In this document: positions 10,556 to 38,964 of the stretch, in pieces
How the letters are laid out: the number at the start of each line of letters is the position of its first letter
Position numbering within the stretch: the stretch's first letter is position 1
Assembly: GCA_963664825.1 (NCBI GenBank)
Contig: OY761614.1
Location: 1,760,001-1,824,000, forward strand
DNA length: 64,000 bases
DNA from: an uncultured Holophaga sp.
GTDB taxonomy: Bacteria > Acidobacteriota > Holophagae > Holophagales > Holophagaceae
Reading direction: 5' to 3'
Position numbers and translations under genes: made by a program
Notes under the pieces: model-generated
What the model was told of the DNA's origin: nothing
The model's database searches: none
Seen by the model: the letters and a program-made list of their open reading frames with translations, nothing else

Positions 10556-11767
10556 ATGAGATTCCTGATCGTCCCCGAGAACAACTCGCTCTCCCATATT
10601 GGCAAGGCCTTGGCCCTGGAGTCTGCCCTCGGTGCCCAGGGCCACGAGGTCTTTGTGGCCGTGGGCGCCGAGCGAGCGCCCTTTGTGCGACACCTGGGCC
10701 CTCGTGGCCGCATCCTGCCGGATCTCCAGGAGCAGGATCACTCCGGTTATCTGACGGTGGAATGGTTCAGGCATCCGAGCCGCATCGTGGAATGCATCCA
10801 GGCCGAGCTGAGCCTCTTGAGGGAATTGCGGCCGGACCGGGTCCTGGGCGTCTTCCGGTTCACCCTGAAGGCCTCTGCGAGGCTGGCCGATGTCCCCTTC
10901 GATTCCCTCGCCTGCGGCTGCATGCTGCCCGAGACCCCAGAGGTGCTCGGATTTGCCGAAGGGTACCCGGGCCTGGCCCAGCAGCGGGAATACCTGAGGC
11001 TCTTCTACGGCTTCGCGGGAGCCCGGCTCAGCCGTGCCCTGGAATCCTTGGGCCTGGAGGGGATTCCCGATATCCGCGAGATGCTAAAAGGGGAGCGGAC
11101 CTTCCTCTGGGATTTCCCGGAATTTTCCATCCTGCCGGAGCTCCCGGGCGTGGTCCATGTGGGCCCGATCCCTTGGCATGGCTGGCCCCAGGAGGATCTG
11201 GACCTGGAGGCGATCCTGGGTGATTCCCGCCCCCTGGCCCTCCTCACCTTCGGCACCTGCGTGGGCAGTGGCGAGGCGGCCCTGCGATTGGCTCGGATCC
11301 TCCGCACCTTGGGGTACCGGGTGCTCTTGGCCGCGGGAGGCCAGGAGGGTCTGCTGGAGGCCGCCGCCCGGGAGCCGGGGCTCATCGCGTGCCGCTTCGC
11401 CCCCCTCCACCTCATCCTGCCCCATGCCGCGATCCTGGCCTGCCACGGGGGCCAGCTCACGGTCTTCGAGGCCCTCGCCTACCGAGTCCCGGTCCTGGTC
11501 CTGCCCTTCCAGGCCGAGCAGGCCCACAACGCAGTCTGCCTGGAGCGCATGGGCTGTGGCCGCCGCCTGGGGGGCCCTCGCTCCTTCCTGGGGGACCCTG
11601 GGGTTTACGTAAACGCCTTCAACGCCATGAGCGACCCGGATCTCCTGGGGATCCTTCGAGGCCTGACGGAGGATCCCCAGACGGCCGATAAACTGGTCGC
11701 CGCTCAGGAAATCCTGGACCGCTACCACGGGCTCGAGACCCTCACCTCCCAGCTGGTGGAGAGTTGA
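10556..11767 (+). CDS. GT-B fold glycosyltransferase (GT1/GT28-like)
   Basis: N-terminal LSH..KALAL...L...GHEV and C-terminal CHGG..T..EAL...VPVLVLP..AEQ..NA. Confidence 0.8.
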   Translation: MRFLIVPENNSLSHIGKALALESALGAQGHEVFVAVGAERAPFVRHLGPRGRILPDLQEQDHSGYLTVEWFRHPSRIVECIQAELSLLRELRPDRVLGVFRFTLKASARLADVPFDSLACGCMLPETPEVLGFAEGYPGLAQQREYLRLFYGFAGARLSRALESLGLEGIPDIREMLKGERTFLWDFPEFSILPELPGVVHVGPIPWHGWPQEDLDLEAILGDSRPLALLTFGTCVGSGEAALRLARILRTLGYRVLLAAGGQEGLLEAAAREPGLIACRFAPLHLILPHAAILACHGGQLTVFEALAYRVPVLVLPFQAEQAHNAVCLERMGCGRRLGGPRSFLGDPGVYVNAFNAMSDPDLLGILRGLTEDPQTADKLVAAQEILDRYHGLETLTSQLVES

Positions 11768-13524
11768 ACGTGGCGCCGGGCATCCTCCTCATCCACGGGT
11801 ATACGGGTTCCGAGCATGATTTCGGTCCCCTGGTCGAAGACCTGGCAGGGGTCTGTCCCGGCGCGGAGATCGTTGCCCTCCCGCTGCCCGGCCATGGAGG
11901 CGCCGCACCCGCATTTGCCCAGGCGGCCTTTCTCGAGGCCATCGGCGAGGCCGCGGCCCATCTCCAGGCCGGGGGCCGCAAGCTCATCCTGGTGGGGCAT
12001 TCCACCGGGGGCAGCCTGGCCCTCGCCGCCATGGAACAGGGGCTCACTCCCTCATTGCTGGTGCTGGCCGCCGTGCCCAACCGCATCGATGGGAGCTACC
12101 TGGCCCACTGGAAGCAGCACGCCGAGGCCATGGGAAGAGGGGGCGGCATCACCTTCACATCCATGGCCCAGATGGTGGCTTTCATCAACAGGATCGGAGC
12201 CCAGCCTCGGGCCCATTGCCCCGTGCTGATCCTCCATGGCCTGGACGATGAGCTCGTGCCCCCTGCCGAGACCGAACTCTGGCGCGTACGGATGGCCCCA
12301 GGCCTAGTCCGCACCGTTTTCATTCCGGGGGCCGGACACCAGTTGTTCCAGGGGGCGGGCCAGGCCTTCGCCTGCGATGTGCTTTGCAGGGCGGTAGCAG
12401 ACGTGGCCTACGAGCTCTCGGAGGATGAGCGCAGCGCCTTGGCCCGGCTCGTGGCCGACGAACCGGAACTGGGGAAATTCATCTCCCTTTCTCCCACCTC
12501 GGCCCGCCATCTGCTGGGCTCACCCAGCGGCCAGGGTGGGGATGGCTGGCCACCCCTTGAACCCCTCGGGGAACCGGTCTTCGCCAATATCGAGATCACC
12601 ACCCGCTGCAATCTCCGCTGCGCTTTTTGCGCGCGCACCCAAGGGGCCAGGCCCGCCGTGGATATGTCCCTCGAGACGTTCAAGCGCATCCTGGATCTCC
12701 TGCCCCACGCCTACCGGATCACCCTGGTTGGCCTCGGCGAGCCGCTGCTGCACCCTGGGGTGGCCGAATGCGTGGCGATGGCAGCCGCGAAGGGCCGCCG
12801 CGTGTCCCTAGTCACCAATGCCCTGCTGCTGACCCCTGAACGCTCCCGTCGCCTCATCGAGGAAGGGCTGGATGGGATCACCTTCAGCCTGGATGCGCCC
12901 ACGGCCGAACTGGCCGCCCAGGTGCGAGCCGGGACAGTGCTTGATACAGCCCTGGCCAATATCCGAAGCTTCAATGCCATCGCGGAGGCCACGCGTCCCG
13001 TGGCCCGGGCCGTGTTCTCCGCCGTCTCTATGACCACGCTGCCTCTCCTAGAGGAGCTGGTGCGCACCGTCGCGGGGCTCGGAGTGGATGTGCTGATGCT
13101 CTCTGATCTCAATTTCAAGGCCAACCTCCCCCAGAGTCTATGGCGCAACCCCGGCGAGGAAGTTGCCTCCACGGTCCGGCAGGCCGTCCGTACGGCCTTC
13201 GCCCTCGGCCTTCCCGTGCTCTCCGTCCACGGACTGGAGGCCTTCGCGCTGCCCCGCCGCTACCAGCGGCATCTCCTGGTCCCCCCGGACCGGCTCTACA
13301 TGCGGTCCTCCTCATGCACACACTGCTTTTCTCCCTGGCAGACGCTTCCCGTGGCCGTGGATGGCAGGCTCACGCTCTGCGACTGCCAGCCGGACCGGGC
13401 CGTGGGGCAGCTTCTGGAACAGCCCTTCGGCGATCTGTGGCTGAGGGGGCCCCTCGCCGAACAGCGTCGACACATGCTTTCGGAGGCGCCGCCCGAGGCC
13501 TGTGCCATCTGTCCACGCTTCTGA
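11764..13524 (+). CDS. alpha/beta-hydrolase fused to radical SAM/SPASM domain
   Basis: HGYTG, GHSTGG nucleophile elbow, HGLDDELVP and GAGH; then NIEITTRCNLRCAFC, GEPLLH and C-terminal Cys motifs (C.HC..PW, CDC, CAIC). Confidence 0.85.
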   Translation: MNVAPGILLIHGYTGSEHDFGPLVEDLAGVCPGAEIVALPLPGHGGAAPAFAQAAFLEAIGEAAAHLQAGGRKLILVGHSTGGSLALAAMEQGLTPSLLVLAAVPNRIDGSYLAHWKQHAEAMGRGGGITFTSMAQMVAFINRIGAQPRAHCPVLILHGLDDELVPPAETELWRVRMAPGLVRTVFIPGAGHQLFQGAGQAFACDVLCRAVADVAYELSEDERSALARLVADEPELGKFISLSPTSARHLLGSPSGQGGDGWPPLEPLGEPVFANIEITTRCNLRCAFCARTQGARPAVDMSLETFKRILDLLPHAYRITLVGLGEPLLHPGVAECVAMAAAKGRRVSLVTNALLLTPERSRRLIEEGLDGITFSLDAPTAELAAQVRAGTVLDTALANIRSFNAIAEATRPVARAVFSAVSMTTLPLLEELVRTVAGLGVDVLMLSDLNFKANLPQSLWRNPGEEVASTVRQAVRTAFALGLPVLSVHGLEAFALPRRYQRHLLVPPDRLYMRSSSCTHCFSPWQTLPVAVDGRLTLCDCQPDRAVGQLLEQPFGDLWLRGPLAEQRRHMLSEAPPEACAICPRF

Positions 13525-13582
13525 GTGGCCAGGGCTTGCGCGGGTCCGATATGATTTCCAGAGCCCCGGAGGAGAGCTGTTG

Positions 13583-14848
13583 ATGAAGATGACCCTGATT
13601 TACCCGAGTTGGCCGAAATTGGACCGACAGACGGAATTCTACCTGCCTCCTCATGGCCCCGTGTGCTTCGCCGCCACCGTTCCCCCCGAAGTGGATCTGA
13701 CCTTCGTCGACGAGAACCTCCAGACCATCGATTTCGATGCCTCCTGCGATCTGCTGGCCCTTTCGGTCATGCTCACCTGCCAGTTGCCTCGGGCCTTCGC
13801 CATCGCCCAGCTTTACAGGGAGAAGGGGATTCCGGTCATCTTCGGCGGCATCGCGACCATGCTCCATTCCGAGGAAGTGGCCCTTCACGCCGATGCGGTC
13901 TTCCTGGGGGAATCCGAGGGACGCTTTGCCGCGGTCCTGGAGGATTTCAAGGCTGGGCGCATGAAGAAGCTCTACGACTACATGGGCCAGCATCCGGACA
14001 TGAACCTCATCGGCACCGCCCGTCGGGAGATCCTCGACCGCAAACTCTACAATTACCGGGGCGTTCAGATGCTGGATCTGGTTCACGCCTCCCGGGGTTG
14101 CCGTTTCAATTGCTATCCCTGCTGCACGGGTTTCCTGGGGGGGAAGTCCTTCCGCCCCCGCCCCATCGACAAGGTCATCGCGGAGATGGAATCCATCCAG
14201 AACAACCGCATGTTCATCGTGGATAACTCCCTGGCCCAGGACAAACAGTGGCTGATCGATCTCTTCACTTCAATGGCGCCCCTCAAGAAGAAGTGGGTCT
14301 CCCACCCCATCATGGACGATGACAAGATCCTCAAGCTGGCGGCCGATGCCGGCGCCTGGTACGTCTATCAGGCCGTGTTTGACACTTCGGATGTGATCCG
14401 CAACCGCATCAAGCGCCTCAAGGACCACGGCATCGGCGTGGAGGGCACGATCCTCCTGGGCACCGATGAGCAGGACGAGGACTCCATCAAGCGCCTGGTG
14501 GACTTCCTGCTGGAAGTCGAACTGGATGTGGCCGAGTTCACCATCATGACCCCCTTCCCTCATTCTCCCTGCCGTACCGCCCTGGAGCAGGAGGGACGGC
14601 TCCTCAGCAGCAACTGGATCGACTACACCGCCGATAAGGTCGTCTTCCGGCCCAAGCAGATGACCCCCGACAAGCTCCAGGAGATGTACCACTACGCCTG
14701 GGACACCTTCTATGCCGATGGAGGACACCAGCTGAAGATGGGCAATCTCTTCAAGCGGGTGATCGAGCGCGAGATGGGGGACGGTACCTATTACCGCTAC
14801 AACCCTCGCAGGAGCCGGGAGTTCCAGAAGGTGCAGTCCGAACAGTGA
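13583..14848 (+). CDS. cobalamin-binding radical SAM protein
   Basis: N-terminal B12-binding region (VIFGGI..GESEG) and SRGCRFNCYPC. GGAGG RBS. Confidence 0.88.
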   Translation: MKMTLIYPSWPKLDRQTEFYLPPHGPVCFAATVPPEVDLTFVDENLQTIDFDASCDLLALSVMLTCQLPRAFAIAQLYREKGIPVIFGGIATMLHSEEVALHADAVFLGESEGRFAAVLEDFKAGRMKKLYDYMGQHPDMNLIGTARREILDRKLYNYRGVQMLDLVHASRGCRFNCYPCCTGFLGGKSFRPRPIDKVIAEMESIQNNRMFIVDNSLAQDKQWLIDLFTSMAPLKKKWVSHPIMDDDKILKLAADAGAWYVYQAVFDTSDVIRNRIKRLKDHGIGVEGTILLGTDEQDEDSIKRLVDFLLEVELDVAEFTIMTPFPHSPCRTALEQEGRLLSSNWIDYTADKVVFRPKQMTPDKLQEMYHYAWDTFYADGGHQLKMGNLFKRVIEREMGDGTYYRYNPRRSREFQKVQSEQ

Positions 14849-16197
14849 CCCGCATCCTGCTGGTCTCGTCCAATATCACGCGGGAACCCTTTCCGGTCTA
14901 TCCCCTGGGCCTGGCGGTCATCGCCTCTGCGCTGGCAGCCTGCGGCCACATCCTGGAACAGTTCGATTATCTCGTGGCGAAAGAGTCCGAGGAGGCTCTG
15001 CGCGCGCGAGTTCAGGCCTTCGCGCCGGATTACGTCTGCATCTCCCTCCGCAACCTGGATGACTGCGATTCCCTCACGGCCAGGGCCTATCCCGTCGTCG
15101 CCCAGCGGATGGTGGAGGTGATCCGGGAGACCAGCGCGGCCCCCGTGATCATCGGGGGGGCTGCCTTCTCCATCCTGCCCGAGGAGATCCTCGCCTTTAC
15201 CGGCGCCGATTATGGGGTGGTGGGTGAAGGCGAAAGAGTCGTCTGCGATCTGATCCGGGATCTCGAAAAAGGGATCCCAAGGCCCCGCATCTTGAGGGGC
15301 GAGACCCTCATTCCCGGCCAGGAACTGATCTCCCCCCTCTATTCCCGGGAGCTGATCGACTTCTACCTGGAACAGAGCGGGATGATCAACCTCCAGACCA
15401 AGCGGGGTTGCGCCCATGGCTGCATCTACTGCAGCTATCCCTCCCTGGAGGGCAGTCGCTATCGCTTCCGGGATCCTCGGGCCGTGGTCGATGACATGGA
15501 GCGGGCCGCCACGGAACACGGCGTGAATTCCTTCTTCTTCACCGATTCGGTCTTCAACGACGGCGAGGGGCACTACCTGCGGGTCGCCGAGGAGATGCTG
15601 CGGCGGGGGAAGCCCCTGCGTTGGTGCTGCTACATCCGCCCCGAAGGCCTCGGCCGACCGGAGATCGCTCTCCTCAAGCGGGCCGGGCTCTATGCCGCGG
15701 AACTGGGCACCGATGCGGCCTGCGACACGACCCTGCACACCTTGGGCAAGGGATTTACCTTCCGGGACGTCCTGGAGGTGAATGGGGCTTTCGTGGCAGA
15801 ACGGGTGCCCTGCGCCCATTTCGTCATGTTCGGCGGGCCAGGGGAGACCCCTGAGACCGTGGCGGAGGGCCTGGCCAATCTCGAGAAGCTCGAGCATACG
15901 GTGGTCTTCGCCTATACGGGCATCCGCATCCTGCCCGACACTCCCCTCCTGAATCTTGCGATCCGGGAGGGCTTCCTGGAGCCTGGAAGCTCTCTGCGGG
16001 AGCCCATCTTCTACCAGTCTCCCCTGATTCCAGGGGAGGCGATGAATGCCATGATCACCGAGGCCTTCAGGGGGCGGCGGGATCGAGTCTTCCCCCCGGA
16101 GGATTCCCAGACCAAGCGGACGGTCCTGCACCGTTTCGGATACCGCGGCCTGCTCTGGGACACGCTCATCCGGTTTCCCAAGGATTTGCCATGTTGA
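14845..16197 (+). CDS. cobalamin-binding radical SAM protein, resembling the lipid-biosynthesis (ladderane-island) family
   Basis: RILLVSSN...P.PVYPLGL, SLRNLD, IIGGAAFS, TKRGCAHGCIYCSYP and DSVFN. Family resemblance recalled, not searched. Confidence 0.85.
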   Translation: MTRILLVSSNITREPFPVYPLGLAVIASALAACGHILEQFDYLVAKESEEALRARVQAFAPDYVCISLRNLDDCDSLTARAYPVVAQRMVEVIRETSAAPVIIGGAAFSILPEEILAFTGADYGVVGEGERVVCDLIRDLEKGIPRPRILRGETLIPGQELISPLYSRELIDFYLEQSGMINLQTKRGCAHGCIYCSYPSLEGSRYRFRDPRAVVDDMERAATEHGVNSFFFTDSVFNDGEGHYLRVAEEMLRRGKPLRWCCYIRPEGLGRPEIALLKRAGLYAAELGTDAACDTTLHTLGKGFTFRDVLEVNGAFVAERVPCAHFVMFGGPGETPETVAEGLANLEKLEHTVVFAYTGIRILPDTPLLNLAIREGFLEPGSSLREPIFYQSPLIPGEAMNAMITEAFRGRRDRVFPPEDSQTKRTVLHRFGYRGLLWDTLIRFPKDLPC

Positions 16198-17639
16198 ACT
16201 CGAACAAGATCCTTTTCGTGCATCCCCTGGGATACAAGGCCTCCGCTGCCGGGAAGGACATCTCCCGGGTGGCCAATATCATGCCTCCCCTGGGGCTGGC
16301 GAGCATGGCGGCCTATCTCGAACAGCGCGCCCTGAGCTCCGAGATCATCGACTGCTACGCCCACCCCGATTCCGATCGCATCATCGTGGATCGCCTCCTG
16401 GCCGAGCAGCCCGCCTTCCTGGGGCTCAGCTGCACCACCTCCAGTTTCCTGGACGGCGTGCGCATCGCCGAGATCGCCCGCAAGACCCTGCCCGGCATCC
16501 AGACCGTCTTCGGGGGGCCCCATGTCTCGGCCCTGAAGGAAAAGCTCTTCCCGGACTACCCCGCCATGGACTATGCGGTGATCGGAGAGGGGGAGGAGAC
16601 CCTCGCCAATCTGATGCGCAACGGCGGCGAGGCCCCGGGAGAGGTCAAGGGGATCATCTACCGGGATGCCGGCGAGGCCCGCTTCACGGGCTACCCGGAC
16701 AAGGCCCTGGAACTCGATAGCCTGCCCTTCCCGGCCTACGAGAAGCTGGCGGGATTCCCCGATTCCTACATGCTGCCCATCTTCAATTACCCGAAGGTGC
16801 CCAACGCCAGCTGCATCTCCAGCCGGGGCTGTCCCTACGCCTGCAGCTACTGCGACCGTTCGGTCTTCCGCCGGAGCTTCCGCTTCAATTCCGCCGAATA
16901 CCTCTATGCCCATCTCAAGCACCTGCGGCAGAAGTTCGGCGTGCGGCACATCAATTTCTACGACGACCAGTTCACCTTCAACAAACAGCGGGTGGAGGAT
17001 TTCACCGACCTGATCCTCAAGGATCCCCTCGGGATGACCTTTAATTGCGCCGTGCGCGCCGAGCACATCGATGCCCCCCTCCTGAAGCGCATGAAGCGGG
17101 CGGGTTGCTGGATGATGAGCCTGGGCATCGAATCGGGGGACGAACAGCTCCTGGCCCAGCACCGCCAGAACGTGGATCTGGATCACCTAGCCCAGAAGAT
17201 CCGGATGATCAAGGCCGCGGGGATCCGCACCAAGGGACTGCTGATGATGGGGCTGCCGGGGGAGACCGAGGAAAGCATCCGCAGGAGCATGGCCTACGTG
17301 TTCTCCCTGCCCATCGACGATTTCAACCTGGCCAAGTTCACGCCCTTCCCGGGCTCTCCCATCTATGAAAACATCCACGAGCTGGGGGAATTCGAAGAGG
17401 ATTGGGAGAAGATGGACTGCATGCATTTCCAGTTCGTCACCAAGGGGATGACCCAGAAGCGCCTGGAGACCCTCTTCCAGGAATTCTATCGTTCCCATTT
17501 CCAGCGCCCGAAGGTCCTCTGGGGCTATGTGACCATGCTCTGGCGCTCCCCGGATAGCTGGTTGCGCTTCCTGAAGAGCCTCACCAGCTTCCTGCGCTAT
17601 ATCCACGTCAACCGGCGCCTCATGGATGAGGAAAGCTAG
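16191..17639 (+). CDS. cobalamin-binding radical SAM protein (class B methyltransferase-like)
   Basis: PPLGLASMAA, VFGGPHVS, GEGEET, SRGCPYACSYC, DDQFT and GIESG. Confidence 0.9.
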   Translation: MLNSNKILFVHPLGYKASAAGKDISRVANIMPPLGLASMAAYLEQRALSSEIIDCYAHPDSDRIIVDRLLAEQPAFLGLSCTTSSFLDGVRIAEIARKTLPGIQTVFGGPHVSALKEKLFPDYPAMDYAVIGEGEETLANLMRNGGEAPGEVKGIIYRDAGEARFTGYPDKALELDSLPFPAYEKLAGFPDSYMLPIFNYPKVPNASCISSRGCPYACSYCDRSVFRRSFRFNSAEYLYAHLKHLRQKFGVRHINFYDDQFTFNKQRVEDFTDLILKDPLGMTFNCAVRAEHIDAPLLKRMKRAGCWMMSLGIESGDEQLLAQHRQNVDLDHLAQKIRMIKAAGIRTKGLLMMGLPGETEESIRRSMAYVFSLPIDDFNLAKFTPFPGSPIYENIHELGEFEEDWEKMDCMHFQFVTKGMTQKRLETLFQEFYRSHFQRPKVLWGYVTMLWRSPDSWLRFLKSLTSFLRYIHVNRRLMDEES

Positions 17640-18664: not shown

Positions 18665-18839
18665 CGACACCCCCCTCTTCGGGGAGAGCCTGGGGCTCGA
18701 TTCCCTGGATGCGGTGGAGCTAGTGATCGTGATCAAGAAGCATTTCGGCATCGAGATCGCCGATATGGAGGAGAGCAAGACCGCCTTCTCCTCGATCAAT
18801 GCCCTGGCCGCCTATATCGATAGCCACCTGCCTGCATGA
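18585..18839 (+). CDS. acyl carrier protein
   Basis: PLFGESLGLDSLDAVELV phosphopantetheine motif. GGAG upstream. Confidence 0.9.
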   Translation: MDTKAKLKKILAEEMNLPVLIQENYDDDTPLFGESLGLDSLDAVELVIVIKKHFGIEIADMEESKTAFSSINALAAYIDSHLPA

Positions 18840-21096: not shown

Positions 21097-21187
21097 CACT
21101 CCCCAGCGCCAATGCGATAGCAAATGGAAATGCTTGATCGGCTGGTTGTCTTTGCGTACCGCTGATGAATCGATGAGGAACCCGAAC

Positions 21188-26616: not shown

Positions 26617-26683
26617 TGCGGGCGCCCTTCGGCAGGGGATGGGAGCTGGGAGGGGCTTCCAGGTATGATCCTTGGGGGTAGGC

Positions 26684-29371: not shown

Positions 29372-29389
29372 GTGAGGAGCGCCTGCGAT

Positions 29390-31356: not shown

Positions 31357-31766
31357 CGCCGTCTCTGAGCGAAGAGGTCATCATCGAGGTGCCCTTCCAC
31401 GATGTGGATGCCATGGGAGTGGCTTGGCACGGCCACTACGTCAAGTACATCGAGATCGCCCGCACGGCCATGATGCGCAAGATCGGCCTGGACTACCCAC
31501 AGCTGAAGGATTCGGGCTACATCTGGCCTGTGGTGGAGTGCCACCTGAAATACATCCGCCCCCTCTTCTACGGTATGAAGGTGCGCGTGAAGGCCACGCT
31601 GGTGGAGTGCGAGAGCCGGGTGAAGGTCGACTACCTCATGACGGACGCCCTTACGGGTGAGCGCCTCAACAAGGCCTGGACCGTGCAGCTGGCCGTGAAG
31701 GCCGATACGGGTGAACTGGCCTTCGAACTGCCCCCTTCCGTGCTCGCCGCCATCCCGAGGTCCTGA
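31353..31766 (+). CDS. 4HBT-type thioesterase (ApeK-like)
   Basis: VPFHDVDAMGVAWHGHYVKY.E.AR. Confidence 0.88.
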   Translation: MTPSLSEEVIIEVPFHDVDAMGVAWHGHYVKYIEIARTAMMRKIGLDYPQLKDSGYIWPVVECHLKYIRPLFYGMKVRVKATLVECESRVKVDYLMTDALTGERLNKAWTVQLAVKADTGELAFELPPSVLAAIPRS

Positions 31767-31768
31767 TC

Positions 31769-32383
31769 ATGCCCAAGCGATTCCTCTCATTCTTGTTCCT
31801 GGCCGCCTGCGCCCTGCAGGTCCAGCGGGCGGAGGCCACCCTTCCGGAGGCGCTGACCGCCCACCTGAAGAACACGCCCCTGCTGCACGTGGAATTCACC
31901 CAGACGCGTCACCTGGCGGCCCTCTCCAGGCCCCTGAAGACCACCGGCCGCATGGTGCTCTCCAAGGACCATGGCGTCATCTGGCAGGTGCGCAAGCCTC
32001 TCAATCTCACCTACGTTGTGGGCCCCAAGGGCATGATGGAAGTGGGACCCGATGGCAAGGCCAAGCGCCGCTCCGCCCAGGATGTGCCCGTGGTCGCCCA
32101 GATGGGGCGCATCATCCAGGCCCTCCTCCAGGGGCGCTGGAGCGCCCTCGACGATTACTTCACCCTGCGGGGGGAGGGGACGGCGGATCGCTGGAAGATC
32201 GCCCTGGTCCCCAAGGCCCAGACCGCGGCCTTCCTGAAGGGCGTCCAGGTGAACGGGGGGCGCTTCATCGAGCGCATCCACGTGGATGAGGCCTCCGGCG
32301 ATGGCATGGATCTCCTGTTCGAACGGCCCCAGACCCAGGAGCCTCTCTCGGAGGCCGAACTGCGTCTCTTCCGGTTCGAGTAG
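31769..32383 (+). CDS. LolA-like periplasmic carrier protein (ApeL-like)
   Basis: Signal peptide, F.Q.R.L..L..PL...G and G..WQ..KP. Lies between the thioesterase and MMPL genes. Confidence 0.8.
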   Translation: MPKRFLSFLFLAACALQVQRAEATLPEALTAHLKNTPLLHVEFTQTRHLAALSRPLKTTGRMVLSKDHGVIWQVRKPLNLTYVVGPKGMMEVGPDGKAKRRSAQDVPVVAQMGRIIQALLQGRWSALDDYFTLRGEGTADRWKIALVPKAQTAAFLKGVQVNGGRFIERIHVDEASGDGMDLLFERPQTQEPLSEAELRLFRFE

Positions 32384-32386
32384 GCC

Positions 32387-34702
32387 ATGCGCACCCGGGG
32401 ATGGATCTGGACCCTCGCGCTGGCGGGGATGACGGTCTTCAGCGTCTGCCGCCTGGTGCGGGGGCAGGCCATTCAGACCGATCTGCTGGCCATGCTCCCG
32501 GAGACGGAGAAGAATCCCGTGGCCGAAGAGGCCGTCAGGTCCCTGGCCAAGGCCACGGGAGAACGGGCCGTCTACCTGCTCCGTGCCGGAGGCCCCGAGC
32601 GCAGCAAGGCCGCGGCCCTGCGCATGGCCGAGACGCTGCGGCACTCCGGGGCCTTCCAAGAGGTCACCGCCACCCTGCCCCCCATCGATCCCGGGATGGT
32701 CTCGCGTTTCTATGCGCCCTATGCCCCGCGGATTGCTCCCCCGGAGGATGGACTCCGAGCCGATCCGGCCTCCCTCAGGACCCGGATCGAGTCCCGGCTG
32801 GCCTCTCCCCAGGGCAGCTTCTCGGGCCTGGGGCCCGGGGCGGACCCCCTGGGCTCCTTCGATGATTTCCTAGGGGGGCTGCCCCTGATGTCCTCGCGGT
32901 TGGAGCTGCAGGATGATCTCATGGTCATCCGCGCCCCGGAAGGTCTCTACGTGCTGTTCAGCGGAAGCCTGCGGGGATCGGCCTTCGACCCCGAGGTCCA
33001 GGCCCGAGTGATCGGGGCCACCCGGGCCGCGGAAAAGGAGCTGAGGACCTCGTATCCGGAGGCCCAGATCCTCCGCACGGGGGCCGTCTTCTACGCCGCG
33101 GACGCCCGGACATCGGCGGAGTGGGAGACCAATCTCATCAGCTCCTGTTCCATGATCTCCATCGTCCTGCTCTTCCTCTGGTTTTTCCGCTCCCTGCGCC
33201 ATCTGCTGCTGGGGTTGCTGGGGGTGGCGGCGGGTTTCGTGGCGGCCACCTCCGTCTGCCTGCTGCTCTTCGGCAAGCTCTACCTGCTGACCCTGGTCTG
33301 CGGTGCCAGCGTGATGGGGGTGGCGGTGGACTATTCGTTCCTCTACTTCGCTAATCATCTGGGGGCCGGGGAGGCCTGGAACCCGCGCACCGTCCTGCGT
33401 AGGCTCCTGCCGGCCCTGAGCCTGGGGCTCTTCACCACGCTCCTGGGGTATGCGGCCCTGCTGGTGGCCCCCTTTCCAGGGCTGCGCCAGATCGCCGTCT
33501 TCTGCCTGGTGGGCCTGGTGGCCGCATTCCTGACGGTGCTCTGCATCCTCCCGGATCTGCTGCTCCGTCCCCTTCCCGCGCGTCCCCGGCTCTTCGAGGG
33601 GCTGGACCGCCTGCTGGGCAGGGGCGTGGCCCTGGCCCGCAATGGCAGGGTCCTGCTCGCCCTGGCCGTCCTGGCGATCCTGCTGATCGCTTGTGTGGCC
33701 AGGCTCCGGGCCGATGATGCCGTGAGAGGCCTGATCCAACCCTCCAAGGCCTTGCTGGCCCAGGAATCCCGGATCACCCAGATGACGGGGTTTTCCAATT
33801 CCGGCGTCTTCTTCCTGGTGGAAGGGGCCGATGAGGCCCAGGTCCTGGGGCGGGAAGAGGCCCTCCGGGGGCGGCTGGCGCCCCTGGTCCAGAGGGGTGA
33901 GCTGGAGGGCTTCCAGGCGATCTCCAGCTTCGTGCCCTCCCCCGCGCGCCAGGAGGCGAGTCTTCGGCGCCAGCAGGAACTGGCCCCCCATCTCCGCAAG
34001 GCTCTCGACGCCGTGGGCTTCCGGCCCGAAGTGGCGAAGCGCCTCCAGGACAACCTTGCCTCCTCCCGGCTCCTGACCACGGAAGCCTGGTTCCAGACCC
34101 CCTTCTCCGTGCCATACCGGATGCTCTGGCTGGGCAGGACCCCCCACGGGATGGCCTCCCTGGTCTATCCCACGGGGGCTCCCGAATCGGCCTCCCTGCG
34201 CCAGGCGGCGGCGGGCCTCCCCGGCGTGAGCCTGGTGGACAAGGCCGGCAGTGTCTCCGAACTCCTGGGCCACTACCGCCGCATCGCCAACTGGGCGCTG
34301 GGCGGGGCCATCCTGCTGATCGCCCTGGTGCTGGTCCTCGTCTACGGCCTGCGCTCCGGCCTGGCCGTATTGGTGCCGGCGCTGCTGGCGATCCTCATCG
34401 CCCTGGGGGGGAGCACCCTCACGGGCACGCCGGTCACCCTCTTCAGTGCCCTGGCCCTGATCCTGGTGCTGGGCTTCGCGGTGGACTACACGGTGTTCCT
34501 GAAGGAGGGCGGCCTGCAGGATTCCTCTTCGCTGCTGGGTGTGCAGCTGGCCAGCCTCTCCACGCTGATCTCCTATGGCCTGCTGGCCTTCAGTCATACT
34601 CCCGCCCTGCGGGGCTTCGGCCTCACGGTCGCCCTGGGCGTGCTTTCCTCGGCGTTCCTCTCCTTCCTCGCCCTGGCCCCGGAGTCCAAGCAAACGCCAT
34701 GA
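32387..34702 (+). CDS. MMPL/RND-type exporter (ApeM-like)
   Basis: Two TM bundles with G.AVDY motifs, TDLLAMLP, FPGLRQIA and TPALRGFGL. Confidence 0.88.
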   Translation: MRTRGWIWTLALAGMTVFSVCRLVRGQAIQTDLLAMLPETEKNPVAEEAVRSLAKATGERAVYLLRAGGPERSKAAALRMAETLRHSGAFQEVTATLPPIDPGMVSRFYAPYAPRIAPPEDGLRADPASLRTRIESRLASPQGSFSGLGPGADPLGSFDDFLGGLPLMSSRLELQDDLMVIRAPEGLYVLFSGSLRGSAFDPEVQARVIGATRAAEKELRTSYPEAQILRTGAVFYAADARTSAEWETNLISSCSMISIVLLFLWFFRSLRHLLLGLLGVAAGFVAATSVCLLLFGKLYLLTLVCGASVMGVAVDYSFLYFANHLGAGEAWNPRTVLRRLLPALSLGLFTTLLGYAALLVAPFPGLRQIAVFCLVGLVAAFLTVLCILPDLLLRPLPARPRLFEGLDRLLGRGVALARNGRVLLALAVLAILLIACVARLRADDAVRGLIQPSKALLAQESRITQMTGFSNSGVFFLVEGADEAQVLGREEALRGRLAPLVQRGELEGFQAISSFVPSPARQEASLRRQQELAPHLRKALDAVGFRPEVAKRLQDNLASSRLLTTEAWFQTPFSVPYRMLWLGRTPHGMASLVYPTGAPESASLRQAAAGLPGVSLVDKAGSVSELLGHYRRIANWALGGAILLIALVLVLVYGLRSGLAVLVPALLAILIALGGSTLTGTPVTLFSALALILVLGFAVDYTVFLKEGGLQDSSSLLGVQLASLSTLISYGLLAFSHTPALRGFGLTVALGVLSSAFLSFLALAPESKQTP

Positions 34703-35247
34703 GATTTCTCCGCTTCTTCCCCCTGATCGGGCTCCTCCTCCTGGGGGGCTGCCGCAATCCTGGTTCCGGCCCCCTCATGCTGGGCCGGGGTGTTTCCTTC
34801 GTGCTGCGCGCGCCTGCGGAAGGGCCCCGGCTCTTCTCGACCCGGGAGGTGCTCTTCCGCCTGCCCGGGGGCCAGGAGGAACGCCTGATCACCTCCTTGG
34901 AAAACGATGGAGAGCGCCTGAGCATCGTCTGCTCGAGCCCCATGGGGATGACCCTCTTCATCGTCCAACTCCGCCAGGGGCTCGTCACGGTGGATGCCCG
35001 CGTGCCCCTGCCCAAGGCCCTGGACCCCCGCCTCCTGCCGGCCCTGATCCAGCTCTCCGAATGGCCCCTGGAGGATCTGCGCAGGGGCCTCAACCCCGAG
35101 GCCTCCCTGGACGAGGAGGGCCCCCAGCGCATCCTCCGCCGGAAGGGGAAGATCCTCCTCATCCTAAAGAGGGAGGGGGCCCGCCGGACCACCCTGGAGA
35201 TCCCTTCCGTATCCATGAGCGCCGTCATCACTTCCCTCGATGAATGA
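34699..35247 (+). CDS. lipoprotein, DUF3261-like (ApeN-like)
   Basis: Lipobox LLGGC, SPMGMTLF and IQL..WP. Position directly after MMPL. Confidence 0.7.
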   Translation: MRFLRFFPLIGLLLLGGCRNPGSGPLMLGRGVSFVLRAPAEGPRLFSTREVLFRLPGGQEERLITSLENDGERLSIVCSSPMGMTLFIVQLRQGLVTVDARVPLPKALDPRLLPALIQLSEWPLEDLRRGLNPEASLDEEGPQRILRRKGKILLILKREGARRTTLEIPSVSMSAVITSLDE

Positions 35248-35324
35248 GGGCCCCGGCGGCTCATGGTAATTTTAATCCAGGAAGGGCTTGGGACAATCTC
35301 GTCCCGGGTCCATGGAGAACCGCA

Positions 35325-35771
35325 GTGACGCATCCCAGTGCAGCGCAAAATGATCTTTGGGAGCCCCTGGACTTGGTCCTTCATCGGCCTCCCATGCTCC
35401 TGCTGGAGGGCGTCCAGGAGGTCACCGAAGATAAATGCGTTGCGCAGGTGCGGGTGGATGGCCAGGCCTGGTACGCCCAACCGGATGGCGCCATGCCGGG
35501 CTGGTTCGGCATCGAGCTGATGGCCCAGACCATCGCCGTCTTCAGCGGAGTGCGCAAGCGCGAGGTGGGCGCGGCACCCAGGCTGGGCTTTCTCCTGGGG
35601 ACCCAGCGTCTGGAGTGCAGCATGGCCGCGTTTCCCGCCGGGGCCCTCCTCGAGGTCTCGGCCCAGCTCTGCTACCTCGACGAATCAGGACTCAGCGCCT
35701 TCACGTGTGAGATCCACCATCTCGGGAAGTCCGTGTCCAAGGCCACACTCAAGACCTACGAGCAGCCATGA
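35325..35771 (+). CDS. hotdog-fold dehydratase partner (ApeP-like)
   Basis: LHRPPMLLL, P.WFGIELMAQ and LGFLLGT. GTG start after GGAG. Confidence 0.85.
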   Translation: MTHPSAAQNDLWEPLDLVLHRPPMLLLEGVQEVTEDKCVAQVRVDGQAWYAQPDGAMPGWFGIELMAQTIAVFSGVRKREVGAAPRLGFLLGTQRLECSMAAFPAGALLEVSAQLCYLDESGLSAFTCEIHHLGKSVSKATLKTYEQP

Positions 35772-36514
35772 TTCCAGCGACCCACCCATCCCCTAGACGA
35801 GTCCTGGTCACAGGCGCCACGGGCAGCATCGGGGGGGCCATCGCCTCCCAGTTGGCCAGGGATGGCTTTCATGTCACGGTCCACTGCCGGAGCCGTGTGC
35901 AGGAGGCAGAGGCCCTGCGGGACGAGATCGTGGCTCGGGGCGGCCTGGCCGATGTGATCGCCTTCGATGTGGCGGACCGGGCCCAGGCCCGAGCCTGCCT
36001 CGAAGAACGCATCGCAGCCGCGGGGCCTTATTACGGAGTCGTCTGCAACGCCGGCATCACCCGGGATAACGCCTTTCCCGCTTTGACCGACGAGGACTGG
36101 GATCTGGTCCTGCGGACGGATCTGGATGGCTTCTTCAATGTGGTCCAGCCCCTCATGATGCCCCTGATCCGCACCCGCCAGGGTGGCCGGATCGTCTGCA
36201 TCTCCTCGGTCTCGGGCGTGACCGGCAACCGGGGGCAGGTCAACTACAGTGCGGCCAAGGCCGGGCTCATCGGCGCGGCCAAGGCCCTGGCCGTCGAGCT
36301 GGCCGGTCGCGGCATCACCGTCAATAGCATCGCGCCCGGGCTGATCGCCTCCGAGATGCTCGATGCGGTGACGCTGGAGCGCGCCCTGCAGGTGGTCCCA
36401 ATGAACCGGGTGGGGGCTCCTGCGGATGTGGCGACCCTGGTAGGCTTTCTCTTTTCCGATGCTGCCAACTACATCACCCGCCAGGTGATCGGCGTCAATG
36501 GGGGGATGGTGTGA
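35768..36514 (+). CDS. fabG: 3-oxoacyl-ACP reductase (ApeQ-like)
   Basis: VTGATGSIG, NAGITRD and GNRGQVNYSAAK (YxxxK). Confidence 0.92.
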   Translation: MIPATHPSPRRVLVTGATGSIGGAIASQLARDGFHVTVHCRSRVQEAEALRDEIVARGGLADVIAFDVADRAQARACLEERIAAAGPYYGVVCNAGITRDNAFPALTDEDWDLVLRTDLDGFFNVVQPLMMPLIRTRQGGRIVCISSVSGVTGNRGQVNYSAAKAGLIGAAKALAVELAGRGITVNSIAPGLIASEMLDAVTLERALQVVPMNRVGAPADVATLVGFLFSDAANYITRQVIGVNGGMV

Positions 36515-37740
36515 ATCGGCGCGTGGTCGTTACGGGAATGGGGGGAGTCACCGCCCTGGGGGATAGCTGGGAAGCTATCGAGGCCAATCTCAGGGCGGGC
36601 CGGAATGCCGTGCGCTACATGCCCGAATGGGAAAAGTTTGGGGATCTCCAGACACGGCTGGGAGTTCCCGTGGACCACTTCCAGGTGCCAGCCCATTATC
36701 CGCGGAAGAGCATCCGGTCCATGGGCCGGGTGGCCATGTTGGGGGTCCGAGCCACGGAGCTGGCCCTGGAGGATGCGGGTCTCCTGGGGGATCCCTCCAT
36801 CCAGGATGGCCGCTTGGGCGTGGCGTACGGCTCCTCCTCCGGCAGCCTGGAACCCATGCTGGCCCTGGGGACTGGGGTGGCGACGGGGAATTTCCGGGGC
36901 ATCAGCGCCACCAGCTACATCCAATCCATGAGCCACACCGCTGCGGTCAATATCGGCGTCTTCTTCGGCCTGAAGGGCCGGGTGATCCCCACCAGCAGCG
37001 CCTGCACCTCCAGCAGTCAGGCCATTGGATACGCCTTCGAAGCCATCCGCTATGGGAAGCAGGACATGATGGTGGCCGGTGGATGCGACGAGCTCAGCTT
37101 CTGCCACGCGGCCGTCTTCGATACGCTCTTCGCCACCAGTCTCAAGAACGAGGCCCCAGCCACCTCCCCCCGGCCCTTCGACCGGGACCGGGATGGCCTG
37201 GTGCTGGGCGAAGGGGGCTGCACCTTCATCCTGGAGGAGCGGGAGCATGCCCTTGCCCGGGGGGCCCGGATCTACGCCGAGGTCATCGGGTTCGGCACCA
37301 ATTCCGATGGGGCCCATATCACCCAGCCCCAGGCGGAGACCATGGCCGTCACCTTGAGTTTGGCCCTGCGGGATGCCGGGATTTCCCCCGATGCCATCGG
37401 CTGGGTCAATGCCCATGGCACAGCCACTGAGCACGGGGATATCGCCGAGAGTCACGCCACCCGCGGGACCTTCCAGCGGGCCGTGCCCATCTCTTCCCTC
37501 AAGAGCTTCTTCGGCCACGCCCTGGGCGCCTGCGGCTCCATCGAAGCCTGGCTGGGCATCATGATGCTGCGCACGGGTTGGGTGGCCCCGAACCTGAATC
37601 TCACGCATCTGGACCCCCGATGCGCCGAACTGGACTACATCCAGGGTCCTGGGCGCGCCCTGGACTGCGACGTCTTCATGAGCAACAACTTCGCCTTCGG
37701 AGGCATCAACACCTCTTTGATCTTCCGCTGCGAAAAGTGA
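36511..37740 (+). CDS. beta-ketoacyl-ACP synthase (ApeR/FabF-like)
   Basis: PTSSACTS, NAHGTAT, GHALGACG and NNFAFGGINTSLIF. Confidence 0.92.
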   Translation: MNRRVVVTGMGGVTALGDSWEAIEANLRAGRNAVRYMPEWEKFGDLQTRLGVPVDHFQVPAHYPRKSIRSMGRVAMLGVRATELALEDAGLLGDPSIQDGRLGVAYGSSSGSLEPMLALGTGVATGNFRGISATSYIQSMSHTAAVNIGVFFGLKGRVIPTSSACTSSSQAIGYAFEAIRYGKQDMMVAGGCDELSFCHAAVFDTLFATSLKNEAPATSPRPFDRDRDGLVLGEGGCTFILEEREHALARGARIYAEVIGFGTNSDGAHITQPQAETMAVTLSLALRDAGISPDAIGWVNAHGTATEHGDIAESHATRGTFQRAVPISSLKSFFGHALGACGSIEAWLGIMMLRTGWVAPNLNLTHLDPRCAELDYIQGPGRALDCDVFMSNNFAFGGINTSLIFRCEK

Positions 37741-37746
37741 TCTGAT

Positions 37747-38964
37747 ATGCCGAGGCGCGTCGCTGTCACCGGGATGGGGATCATCTCCTGCCTCGGGAAC
37801 CGCCTGGAGATCGTCTCAGAGGCCCTCTCCATGGGGCGCTCCGGGATCCGCGGGATGCCGGATTGGCGGGCCCTGGGCCTGCTCTCCTGTGTGGCGGGGG
37901 TGCCAGATCTGGCCGGGGAAGCAGCCATCGACCGGAAGCTCCACCGCTTCATGGGCGATTCGGCCACCTATGCCTACCATGCGATGCGCCATGCCATCGC
38001 CCATGCGGGCTTGGCGCCTGAAAGCCTCTCGCATCCCCGCACGGGCTTGATCCTCGGCGCAGGCGTCGGATCCCTCTTCAATCACGCCAAGACCATGACC
38101 ACCTTTCATTCCAGGGGCATGAAGTGCGTTCCCCCATACGCTGTGCCCAAGATCATGGGCAACACCGCATCGGCGGCCCTGGCCACGGCCTTCCGCATCA
38201 AGGGGATGAGCCTGACCATTTCGTCGGCCTGCGCCAGTTCCGCCCATGCCATCGGTGCCGGGGCCGAGCAGATTCTCCTGGGGAAGCAGGACATCGTATT
38301 CGTGGGGGGCGCCGAGGAGGTCTGCTGGACGACCTCCGTGGGCTTCGACGCCATGGGAGCCCTCTCCACGGCTTGCAACGACGCTCCTGAAACTGCGTCC
38401 CGCCCCTACGATCTTTCCAGGGACGGGTTCGTGCTTGCGGGGGGGGCAGGCGTCCTGGTGCTTGAGGACTGGGCTCACGCCGAAGCCCGGGGAGCCTCCA
38501 TTCATGCCGAGTTGCTGGGATACGGGGCCTGCTCCGATGGGAACGACATGGTGTCCCCATCTTCGGAGGGGGCGGCTCGCTCCATGCGCCTTGCCCTCGA
38601 CCAGGCGGGGCTCGCTAGCGTCGGCTACGTCAATACCCACGCCACGTCCACCCAGGCCGGGGATATCGCCGAAGTGCGGGCCTTGATGGAAGTCTTCGGG
38701 AAAAACATCCCCCTCTTTTCATCGACGAAGGGTCTCTCGGGACATCCCATCGGCGCTTCCGGTGTCCACGAGGCGATCTATTCCATCCTGATGATGAACC
38801 AGGGCTTCCTAGCTGGGGCAGCCAACGTGACGACACTGGATCCGCTTCTGGAGGGTCTGCCGCTGGTGCGCGAAACGGTGAGGGCAGACATCGGGTCCTT
38901 CCTGACCAATAGCTTCGGCTTCGGCGGCACCAATGCCAGCCTCGTTTTCGGGCGGGAAACCTAG
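37747..38964 (+). CDS. beta-ketoacyl-ACP synthase I (FabB-like)
   Basis: ISSACASSAH, SRPYD..RDGFV, NTHATST, SSTK..SGH and NSFGFGGTNA. Confidence 0.88.
   Translation: MPRRVAVTGMGIISCLGNRLEIVSEALSMGRSGIRGMPDWRALGLLSCVAGVPDLAGEAAIDRKLHRFMGDSATYAYHAMRHAIAHAGLAPESLSHPRTGLILGAGVGSLFNHAKTMTTFHSRGMKCVPPYAVPKIMGNTASAALATAFRIKGMSLTISSACASSAHAIGAGAEQILLGKQDIVFVGGAEEVCWTTSVGFDAMGALSTACNDAPETASRPYDLSRDGFVLAGGAGVLVLEDWAHAEARGASIHAELLGYGACSDGNDMVSPSSEGAARSMRLALDQAGLASVGYVNTHATSTQAGDIAEVRALMEVFGKNIPLFSSTKGLSGHPIGASGVHEAIYSILMMNQGFLAGAANVTTLDPLLEGLPLVRETVRADIGSFLTNSFGFGGTNASLVFGRET

Follow-up and report, generated by a model that had tools for sequence, protein, structure and literature searches.

Overview of the Locus

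The window analyzed here, a stretch of 64,000 nucleotides from an uncultured Holophaga sp. (contig OY761614.1, positions 1,760,001 to 1,824,000), comes from a complete, single-contig genome of 3.47 Mb and holds a cluster of 27 genes between positions 10556 and 38964 (table 1). In this cluster an arm of the type that makes aryl-polyene lipids (the ape arm, on the right) stands beside a left arm rich in radical S-adenosylmethionine (rSAM) enzymes, with a member of the NCBIfam family TIGR04072 among them. Genes were defined by GC3 filtering of open reading frames (ORFs) together with Pfam and NCBIfam profile scans, raw ORF lists being noisy at high G+C; the G+C content is 63–68% across the cluster, with the lowest stretch (22001–24000, 58.6%) around the ankyrin genes. 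The genes form three units, 10556–23737 on the forward strand, 26513–23881 on the reverse strand, and 26672–38964 on the forward strand, and most neighbors overlap by 1–23 nt or are separated by gaps of 0–18 nt.

A sequence-only reading of this DNA had listed about 27 genes, including three ketosynthases (KS) and one chain-length factor (CLF), three acyl carrier proteins (ACPs), a ketoreductase (KR), dehydratases, a loading enzyme, a lyase, and export genes, and all of these were recovered. Of its four radical SAM enzymes, each has the CX3CX2C motif, yet only three are of the cobalamin (B12) type; the first (11764–13524) is a hydrolase–rSAM–SPASM fusion. The two secreted ankyrin proteins, the deacetylase/methyltransferase fusion, and the hydrolase domain had been missed. 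The gene content and the ape letter order described below support the proposal that an ape-type arm is joined here to a B12-rSAM arm in one hybrid locus. All three ACPs carry the serine motif DS(L/I)D, and a Pfam scan found no enoyl reductase among the cluster genes.

Table 1. Genes of the Cluster, with Positions in the Window and Supporting Matches
Gene product	Position	Strand	Basis of assignment
GT1-type (MGT/EryCIII-like) glycosyltransferase	10556..11767	+	PF04101 25.9 bits (cut-off 22), PF00201 21.6 (19.5)
Alpha/beta-hydrolase + radical SAM + SPASM fusion	11764..13524	+	PF00561, PF04055 73.3 bits, PF13186; C282/C286/C289; nucleophile elbow GHSTG
Divergent B12-type radical SAM protein (B12like)	13502..14848	+	CRFNCYPC at 200-207; TIGR04013 55 bits
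TIGR04072 "lipid biosynthesis B12-binding/radical SAM protein"	14845..16197	+	651.3 bits (cut-off 360); C189/193/196
Second class-B (B12) radical SAM enzyme, HpnJ/BchE/P-methylase-like	16191..17639	+	PF04055 84.3, PF02310 72.6
LpxL-type (lipid A biosynthesis family) acyltransferase	17639..18664	+	PF03279 60.1 bits; two N-terminal hydrophobic segments
ACP1 (start uncertain; ORF opens at 18495)	18585..18839	+	PF00550 41 bits; GLDSLD motif
KS1, cassette ketosynthase	18836..20011	+	Cys-His-His intact
CLF-like inactive KS partner	20008..21096	+	Asp at Cys position, both His absent
681-aa secreted ankyrin-repeat protein	21134..23179	+	Ank Pfam matches; signal-peptide-like N-terminus
153-aa secreted ankyrin-repeat protein	23276..23737	+	Pfam Ank_2 83 bits; signal peptide
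GT2 + DUF2062 membrane glycosyltransferase (ApeJ-like glycosyl part)	23881..25053	-	PF00535 66.5, PF09835 52.2; three C-terminal hydrophobic segments
NodB-type polysaccharide deacetylase fused to SAM methyltransferase	25059..26513	-	PF01522 95.9, PF13649 65.7
PlsC-type acyltransferase (position of ApeD)	26672..27463	+	PF01553 69.9 bits
ACP2	27447..27749	+	GLDSIDG motif; 51-69% identical homologues in relatives' ape arms
ACP3	27740..27994	+	PF00550 40 bits; NF003757 111.9 bits (cut-off 65)
Adenylating enzyme (ApeH-like)	28013..29371	+	PF00501 62.8
ApeI-like dehydratase subunit	29372..29770	+	PF22818 40.8 bits (cut-off 28.5)
MIO aromatic amino-acid ammonia-lyase (start inferred; ORF opens at 29683)	29773..31356	+	PF00221 527.6 bits; MIO triad Ala-Ser-Gly
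4HBT thioesterase (ApeK-like; start inferred)	31353..31766	+	PF13279 57.8 bits
LolA-like carrier (ApeL-like)	31769..32383	+	PF19574 35.2 bits (cut-off 23); signal peptide
MMPL/RND transporter (ApeM-like)	32387..34702	+	PF03176 42.5 bits; 11 hydrophobic segments
DUF3261 lipoprotein (ApeN-like)	34699..35247	+	PF11659 56.2 bits; lipobox LLGGC
ApeP-like dehydratase subunit	35244..35771	+	PF22817 77.2 bits (cut-off 27)
Ketoreductase (ApeQ-like FabG)	35768..36514	+	TIGR01831 359.4 bits (cut-off 338.85)
KS (position of ApeR)	36511..37740	+	NF006587 678.8 bits (cut-off 470); Cys-His-His intact
Extra FabB-like KS	37747..38964	+	NF005935 526 bits (below cut-off 630); Cys-His-His intact
NOTE.—GT1 and GT2, glycosyltransferase types; MIO, 4-methylideneimidazole-5-one.

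The Ape Arm and Its Missing Functions

In the letters of the ape genes, the right arm reads D, E, F, H, I, K, L, M, N, P, Q, R. The ape core has been defined as the KS genes apeO/R, the ACP genes apeE/F, the CLF gene apeC, the dehydratase genes apeI/P, the KR gene apeQ, and the transporter gene apeM (10.1101/2020.12.19.423268), and all of these functions are present in the window. Three KSs with intact catalytic residues answer to the two, ApeO and ApeR, of ape clusters, which does not imply that KS1 or the extra KS is an orthologue of ApeO; the CLF (20008–21096) stands for ApeC, but lies in the left arm, outside the ape-ordered one; and the two ACPs, ApeI/ApeP with ApeQ, and ApeM/ApeL/ApeN are all found.

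The apeA–R clusters of Escherichia coli CFT073 and Xenorhabdus doucetiae, whose products are aryl-polyene lipids (APELs), have in common with the window a type II PKS-like core (KS, CLF, two ACPs, KR, ApeI/ApeP dehydratase), the loader, thioesterase, PlsC-type and GT2-type transferases, and the LolA-like/MMPL/DUF3261 export set. The window differs in having no ApeO-type KS inside the arm and no stand-alone ApeB-like methyltransferase among its 27 cluster genes, the sole classical methyltransferase domain being fused to the deacetylase (25059–26513); in carrying its CLF and LpxL-type acyltransferase in a separate unit with three B12-type rSAM enzymes; and in the addition of the MIO lyase, the GT1-type enzyme, the hydrolase–rSAM–SPASM and deacetylase–methyltransferase fusions, two ankyrin proteins, and an extra KS. 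In the Xenorhabdus APELs, the backbone is glycerol-phosphate-N-acetylgalactosamine; the glycerol bears one saturated and one conjugated C26:5 acyl chain, the latter proposed to be transferred from ApeF by ApeD, and the aryl polyene is esterified to the sugar by the glycosyl/acyltransferase ApeJ, from ApeE, with ApeB methylating the aryl ring and ApeM, ApeL, and ApeN exporting the lipid (10.1101/2020.12.19.423268). The available part of an E. coli study assigns the same roles to the Ape proteins (PMC8253772).

Against this background the right arm is incomplete: it has neither a CLF nor an ApeJ-type glycosyl/acyltransferase, the sole CLF and LpxL-type genes being in the left arm and the sole GT2-DUF2062 gene in the divergent pair. 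Ape-only clusters occur in two genomes of the same family, G019 and G021, and there the ape arm itself contains GT2 (35% identity) and LpxL-like (24–29%) genes and an active ApeO-like KS; canonical ape clusters lack the rSAM genes, in agreement with the earlier statement that they do not normally carry several B12-rSAM enzymes. In G002, of the window's own genus, an LpxL-type gene is missing from the ape arm, and the single one detected accompanies the unlinked cassette. In cassette-bearing genomes, ApeJ-type functions thus come only from the cassette side.

The ape arm of the window likewise has no ApeO-like active KS, which is present within the arm in G002, G020, and G021, and the extra FabB-like KS (37747–38964) may therefore be a replacement for it. 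This extra KS is specific to this genome among those checked, the best matches in G002, G007, G016, and G020 being only 36–40% identical.

The starter unit is less clear. The lyase is about equidistant from solved histidine (HAL) and tyrosine (TAL) ammonia-lyases, tyrosine aminomutase (TAM), and phenylalanine ammonia-lyase (PAL), at 251–205 bits. Its selectivity dyad aligns as Tyr-His where Pseudomonas HAL has Ser-His, and we take TALs to have His-Leu and PALs Phe-Leu; since the dyad is unlike any of these, the substrate does not appear predictable, and tyrosine is a default guess. The best named match of the adenylating enzyme is 4-coumarate-CoA ligase (TIGR02372, 104 bits, cut-off 335). Relatives' ape arms keep the lyase at 68–78% identity.

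Two other known systems share parts of this arrangement. The flexirubin clusters of Bacteroidota, which make a tyrosine-ammonia-lyase-primed aryl polyene on a dialkylresorcinol, have the lyase and ligase start and the LolA-like export in common, and their models match weakly (FlxA, NF053541, 313 bits with a cut-off of 700; FlxB 242, cut-off 340; LolA2_flexi 52.5, cut-off 125). Among the 27 genes, Pfam and NCBIfam mark no dialkylresorcinol-type enzyme, which we take to be of the DarA/DarB type, and the KSs match only ordinary KS/FabF families. We rejected a flexirubin cluster because the FlxA equivalog cut-off is not reached and no resorcinol-type enzyme is marked among these genes. In Nod-factor synthesis, NodC is the GT2 enzyme, NodB the deacetylase, NodS the N-methyltransferase, and NodA the N-acyltransferase. 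The divergent pair, a GT2 gene beside a NodB-type deacetylase fused to a NodS-like methyltransferase, resembles this head-group logic as a functional analogy only: the matches (NodB 105.8 bits, NodS 32.5 bits) are far below the equivalog cut-offs, and the window has neither a chitin-oligomer synthase nor NodA. The celluxanthene aryl-polyene pathway of anaerobes was set aside as unrelated, being described in the part of the source available as using a type I polyketide synthase that works iteratively.

The TIGR04072 Cassette Belongs to a Family Noted Since 2009

The protein at 14845–16197 matches TIGR04072 over its full length (1–443 of 443); the short name of the model in NCBIfam is rSAM_ladder_B12. 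At least 2102 related protein clusters were obtained at E<=1e-40 among 8000 candidates scored, every named source uses the TIGR04072 product name, and a look-up in the ESM Atlas returned only clusters of the same name; a text search of the literature for TIGR04072 and its names found nothing. To follow the genes around it, we assembled 52 related loci from a scan of one genome per species (labeled L). In most of them the core of the left arm keeps the same order, B12like, TIGR04072, second B12-rSAM, LpxL-type acyltransferase, ACP, KS, CLF (hereafter the cassette), so that the synteny proposed as a check by the sequence-only reading was found and the grouping of these genes is far beyond chance. 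Within the cassette, ACP1, KS1, and CLF are encoded in one overlapping unit, and B12like is the most conserved protein, with 80–90% identity in Holophagaceae and Geobacter loci. Record titles of the loci include Holophagaceae, Geobacter/Geobacteraceae, Desulfuromonadaceae, Desulfobulbaceae/Desulfopila/Desulfurivibrio, "Deltaproteobacteria," and Methylomirabilia, with Bacteroidales distant (32–33% identity). A variant without B12like occurs in other Holophagaceae (G016, G020, and L024–L031); Geobacter shares the variant that includes B12like.

This breadth bears on the earlier description of the locus as an undescribed biosynthetic system, which was too strong. In the available text of Rattray et al. 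(2009; PMC2649909), the architecture is already described: fatty-acid-synthase-like clusters in Kuenenia stuttgartiensis, which is an anammox bacterium, encode radical SAM proteins, a CoA-ligase-like enzyme, a glycosyltransferase, phytoene-dehydrogenase-like and polysaccharide-deacetylase-like proteins, a methyltransferase, and inactive paralogues of FabF, and "similar gene clusters" are noted in Desulfotalea psychrophila, Geobacter, and Pelobacter carbinolicus. The signature enzyme has a curated model, and antiSMASH-based papers, as far as their accessible portions go, list "ladderane" clusters of unknown function in Desulfobacterota, Myxococcota, Verrucomicrobiota, and other phyla (10.1101/2022.12.20.521206) as well as "arylpolyene-ladderane" hybrids (10.1101/2020.05.05.072835). 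The claim that the product is probably not a known structure fared better, for a literature search, which left supplements aside, gave no characterized product. The cluster is thus a member of a widespread family in anaerobes that has been recognized since 2009.

The "ladderane-type" clusters and the window have in common a B12-rSAM enzyme, of the TIGR04072 family and in the anammox case presumably so, beside a dedicated ACP and a pair of KS and inactive KS and, in what is available of the published descriptions, a CoA-ligase-like enzyme and glycosyltransferase, polysaccharide-deacetylase-like, and methyltransferase genes; with the Geobacter loci the window shares cassette proteins at 54–83% identity. 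The anammox Cluster I (KustE3603-3608) and Desulfobulbales loci have a phytoene-desaturase-like flavoprotein; a tblastn search of the window with three of these, taken from L036, L039, and L049, gave no match. The window adds a complete canonical ape arm with a lyase, and its host is not an anammox bacterium. According to the accessible portion of one survey, ladderanes are strictly associated with anammox genera (10.1101/2022.12.20.521206), and the available text of Rattray et al. reports that none were found in D. psychrophila despite its related cluster (PMC2649909). We therefore regard ladderane production outside anammox bacteria as unlikely, and the software label "ladderane" is probably wrong there.

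The KS pair may nonetheless have anammox relatives. The best solved relative of KS1 is 9s5h chain B (215 bits), followed by Thermus FabF (195) and the ishigamide KS 6kxd (169), and the CLF matches chain C of the same structure as its second best (52.7 bits); in the alignment, chain C has Val at the position of the catalytic Cys. According to the part of the report available, the two FabF homologues encoded in anammox Cluster I associate as a heterodimer of the KS/CLF kind, in which amxFabFmut has Val for the catalytic Cys (10.64898/2026.05.19.726425). From this shared Val we infer that 9s5h is probably the anammox amxFabF heterodimer.

Chemistry of the Radical SAM Enzymes

PF04055 scores three of the four rSAM proteins. 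The fourth, B12like (13502–14848), is not scored; it has a B12-binding match below threshold (26.2 bits, cut-off 32.1) and weak NCBIfam matches to B12-rSAM families. The best characterized NCBIfam relatives of the TIGR04072 protein, BzaD (187 bits) and TsrM (142 bits), are both methylases, and the TsrM structure 6wte matches at 111 bits. By our own count from the alignment, the TIGR04072 protein has Val where 6wte has Glu273, a residue that we take to ligate the unique iron of TsrM and to prevent radical initiation; this Val suggests that the TIGR04072 enzyme is probably a true radical enzyme. For the second B12-rSAM enzyme, HpnJ, BchE, and the P-methylases score equally, at 169 bits each, all below their NCBIfam cut-offs. 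C-methylation of an unactivated carbon is the most probable chemistry.

The chain modified could be either the aryl polyene or a second, nonaryl chain. Methylation of an aryl group is favored by the lack of ApeB in the window and by the best characterized relatives of TIGR04072 being the aromatic C-methylases BzaD and TsrM. A nonaryl or polyene target is favored by the persistence of the cassette in clusters without a lyase and by anammox Cluster I, which has no aryl part. For rSAM action on ketide-type lipids, the proposed cases given in the accessible part of a 2026 review are confined to ladderanes and the Jaw5 product (PMC13459092). The GT1-type gene at the left end of the cluster accompanies the adjoining hydrolase–rSAM–SPASM gene (11764–13524) in relatives' loci.

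Distribution and Arrangement of the Two Arms

To assess the codistribution of the arms, we searched 41 related genomes, which are not independent of one another, with the TIGR04072 and PF22817 (ApeP-like) profiles. TIGR04072 scored above cut-off in 9 genomes and the ApeP-like profile in 17, and the ApeP-like gene was found in 9/9 TIGR04072-positive versus 8/32 TIGR04072-negative genomes. Within the window's genus, both genes occur in five of eight genomes (G001–G005) and neither was found in G006–G008 (93, 99, and 97% complete). Both genes are also found in G041, G042, and G045, although the ApeP-like match of the last (25.3 bits) does not reach the cut-off of 27. Among 251 genomes sampled across the phylum, TIGR04072 was above cut-off in five and close to it in four more.

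The arms are also intermingled physically in some relatives. The cassette is interleaved with ape genes in a rearranged order in G016, G020, and G009, and it lies between the ApeR-position KS and the KR in L024 and L028. By Pfam, a lyase, LolA, MMPL, PlsC-type acyltransferase, AMP-ligase, thioesterase, KS, and KR surround the cassette in L005 (Geobacter) and in L036 and L039 (Desulfopila). Neighbors within 10 kb of the TIGR04072 gene were counted in the 30 of the 52 loci that span at least 15 kb, the 22 shorter ones being left out: KS was found in 30, LpxL in 23, CLF and thioesterase in 21 each, MMPL in 15, ApeI-like and GT2-DUF2062 in 13 each, PlsC in 12, LolA and PagL-like in 11 each, desaturase-like in 10, and lyase in 8.

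Behind the cassette in L005 (16394–20937) lie genes for a PagL-like deacylase of outer-membrane lipids, a BtrH_N/DUF4872 protein, and an ABC-2 transporter; BtrH is presumably the ACP-to-amine acyltransferase of butirosin biosynthesis. The PagL-like and BtrH_N genes near cassettes hint at an acylated amino-sugar lipid in the outer membrane.

Apparently Separate Histories of Cassette and Ape Arm

The Geobacter locus L005 and the window share the cassette proteins at high identity (B12like 83%, TIGR04072 71%, second rSAM 78%, LpxL 61%, KS1 72%, CLF 54%), and are far less alike outside it (lyase 36%, thioesterase 29%). Between the window and G020, of the same family, identities are 58, 71, 53, 66, and 43% in the cassette, which has no B12like there, and 44–75% in the ape arm. 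In a tree of 44 TIGR04072 proteins, calculated by a quick method and midpoint-rooted, the window pairs with L004 (support 98) within a group of six rows (99), which is sister (85) to a group of 17 rows that includes those of Geobacter and Desulfuromonadaceae; other Holophagaceae rows fall outside. The higher identity of the cassette than of the lyase to Geobacter, together with this placement in the tree, suggests that the cassette crossed between phyla separately from the ape arm. Orthologues of the genes flanking the cluster are about 67 kb apart in G007, which has no cluster, and on different contigs in G002.

Two rows with other titles, L001 ("Deltaproteobacteria bacterium") and L003 ("Bacillota bacterium"), group with Holophagaceae rows in the same tree. 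Their ApeP matches have the same contig numbers and coordinates as G005 and G003, of the window's genus, and the titles look like mislabeled bins.

A Proposed Pathway and Its Alternatives

We propose, with a probability of about 0.55, that the two arms form one integrated pathway for an exported outer-membrane APEL-like lipid, one acyl chain of which is tailored by radical SAM enzymes. The proposal draws on the gene content, motifs, synteny, and co-occurrence reported above, from which every chemical step is inferred. The MIO lyase would deaminate an aromatic amino acid to an aryl-acrylate starter, which the ApeH-like adenylating enzyme would load onto an ACP. The ApeR-position KS, a KS1/CLF heterodimer, and the extra KS would then extend the chain with malonyl units, with the KR and the ApeI/ApeP dehydratase acting in each round; as the cluster has no enoyl reductase, a conjugated polyene acyl-ACP is the expected product. 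The three B12-type rSAM enzymes may tailor an ACP-bound chain, most simply on ACP1, before the LpxL-type enzyme transfers it, since their genes share one overlapping unit with those for the LpxL-type enzyme, ACP1, and KS1/CLF. Assembly of the chains on a glycerol-phosphate-hexosamine backbone like that of the Xenorhabdus APELs would fall to the GT2-DUF2062 enzyme and the two acyltransferases, PlsC-type and LpxL-type; the GT2-DUF2062 and LpxL-type proteins would together cover ApeJ, and KS1/CLF would cover ApeO/ApeC. By analogy with Nod factors, the deacetylase/methyltransferase fusion might turn an N-acetyl-hexosamine into a free or N-methylated amine, and the GT1 and hydrolase–rSAM–SPASM pair might decorate the lipid further. 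MMPL, the LolA-like protein, and the DUF3261 lipoprotein would carry the lipid to the outer membrane. The export genes and glycosyltransferases agree with the earlier suggestion that the product is probably exported and sugar-bearing.

Several observations weigh against this proposal. The co-occurrence counts overstate the support, as the genomes compared are kin. The arms are on separate contigs in G002, where the cassette occupies the middle of a 501-kb contig, and in G041. Independent occurrence of the arms in relatives, with unrelated products, had been named beforehand as grounds for rejecting the first reading; both arms are still present in each of these genomes, so that their separation does not imply independent functions. 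Ape clusters without a cassette exist (G019, G021), and the cassette carries its own ACP, KS/CLF, and acyltransferase, so that it could make a separate lipid. It also looks horizontally mobile, which fits a plug-in module and an independent pathway alike. The lyase is below every NCBIfam subfamily cut-off, and the aryl starter is accordingly assumed. PF22817 was found in none of five further genomes of the phylum with TIGR04072-like genes (three of them above cut-off), and these further clusters add the phytoene-desaturase-like gene absent from the window. By tblastn, however, the loci of G067, G203, and G110 place the cassette among PlsC-type, AMP-ligase, LolA, MMPL, hot-dog, thioesterase, KR, KS, and phytoene-desaturase-like genes, an ape-like context that suggests dehydratases too divergent for the Pfam model; PF22817 therefore fails as a universal marker of the ape arm outside Holophagaceae.

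Some of these points would be expected if two independent pathways lay side by side, an ordinary aryl-polyene lipid being made on the right and a separate rSAM-modified acyl chain for another envelope lipid on the left. The unlinked arms of G002 and G041, the ape-only clusters, the contrast between 54–83% identity to Geobacter loci in the cassette and 36% in the lyase, and a tree that sets the window's TIGR04072 group beside Geobacter and other Holophagaceae outside are all consistent with it. We nevertheless consider this rather unlikely: the ape dehydratase accompanies TIGR04072 in all nine positive relatives and both are missing together from three genomes of the genus; a KR, dehydratase, thioesterase, loader, and exporter are all missing from the cassette, and a CLF and ApeJ-type genes from the ape arm of the window; and in G016, L024, and L028 the cassette sits within the ape arm.

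The integrated pathway could also end in different chemistry, with the rSAM enzymes closing rings on the conjugated polyene, by BchE-like C–C closure or anammox-type cyclobutane formation, to give a carbocyclic lipid. The affinity of KS1 to 9s5h chain B, whose partner chain C has the amxFabFmut-like Val, the short name of the TIGR04072 model, and the tie of the second B12-rSAM enzyme between the cyclase BchE and the ring-contracting HpnJ point this way, and conjugated polyenes from the cluster would be plausible ring precursors. The reported absence of ladderanes from D. psychrophila, their reported restriction to anammox genera, and the lack in the window of the phytoene-desaturase-like gene of anammox Cluster I make ring formation improbable. 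Equally doubtful is a product that is not an aryl polyene, in which an anaerobic fatty-acid-synthase variant makes polyunsaturated or unusual membrane fatty acids or hydrocarbons and the lyase has another role: an anaerobic polyunsaturated fatty acid route is suggested for the Kuenenia and Desulfotalea clusters in the available part of Rattray et al. (PMC2649909), and the lyase is near the TIGR04072 gene in only 8 of 30 loci and below the TAL/HAL/PAL subfamily cut-offs, but in the window the genes for an aryl starter (lyase, adenylating enzyme, two ACPs) are complete and follow the ape order, the ApeI/ApeP-type dehydratases exceed Pfam cut-offs and no enoyl reductase accompanies them, and relatives retain the lyase in their ape arms.

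The TIGR04072 family is among the larger "known unknowns" of bacterial lipid biosynthesis, with a curated name and no function. The copy in the window offers a clean division of labor, in which the chain-length factor and transferases that the canonical ape-ordered arm lacks come from the cassette, and is thus a good case for knock-out and labeling. Identifying its product would give TIGR04072 a function, reveal how rSAM enzymes act on ketide-type lipids, and inform ladderane biosynthesis. As a long shot, the cassette might be a mobile module, kin to the anammox ladderane candidates, that plugs ring closure into resident polyene-lipid pathways. If so, nonanammox anaerobes, such as Geobacter and the host of the window, would make carbocyclic polyene-derived lipids, and ladderane chemistry would become approachable in a fast-growing, genetically tractable host.

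Other Features of the Locus

Rfam at gathering thresholds gave no matches over the whole window, and hence no cobalamin riboswitch. A repeat search of 9800–39200 found no mobile-element ends, only similarity at the level of paralogues (KS pairs, ankyrin repeats). A scan of 9700–29000 gave 5 promoter-like sites (3.2 expected) and 7 terminator-like sites (12.4 expected). Twelve contigs of a metatranscriptome (0.07 share of words) match pieces of both arms at 95–99% likeness, which does not imply transcription.

The ankyrin genes (21134–23179 and 23276–23737) sit between the arms, and the C-terminal 380 residues of the larger protein have no Pfam match. A homologue of the small ankyrin protein adjoins the GT2-DUF2062 gene in L004 (90%) and in L009, L025, L031, and G016 (37–46%). 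Just upstream of the cluster, 10070–10489 encodes a protein of 139 residues, nearly all of them in zinc-finger repeats of the DnaJ type, CXXCXGXG (PF00684, 44.7 bits); it has no J domain. About 2.6 kb past the cluster, on the reverse strand, 41591–44226 encodes a class-V aminotransferase/cysteine-desulfurase-like protein of 608 residues with an N-terminal extension of 220 residues. Its gene adjoins one for a CCG/4Fe-4S protein, and it could provide Fe-S clusters to the four rSAM enzymes or have no relation to them.

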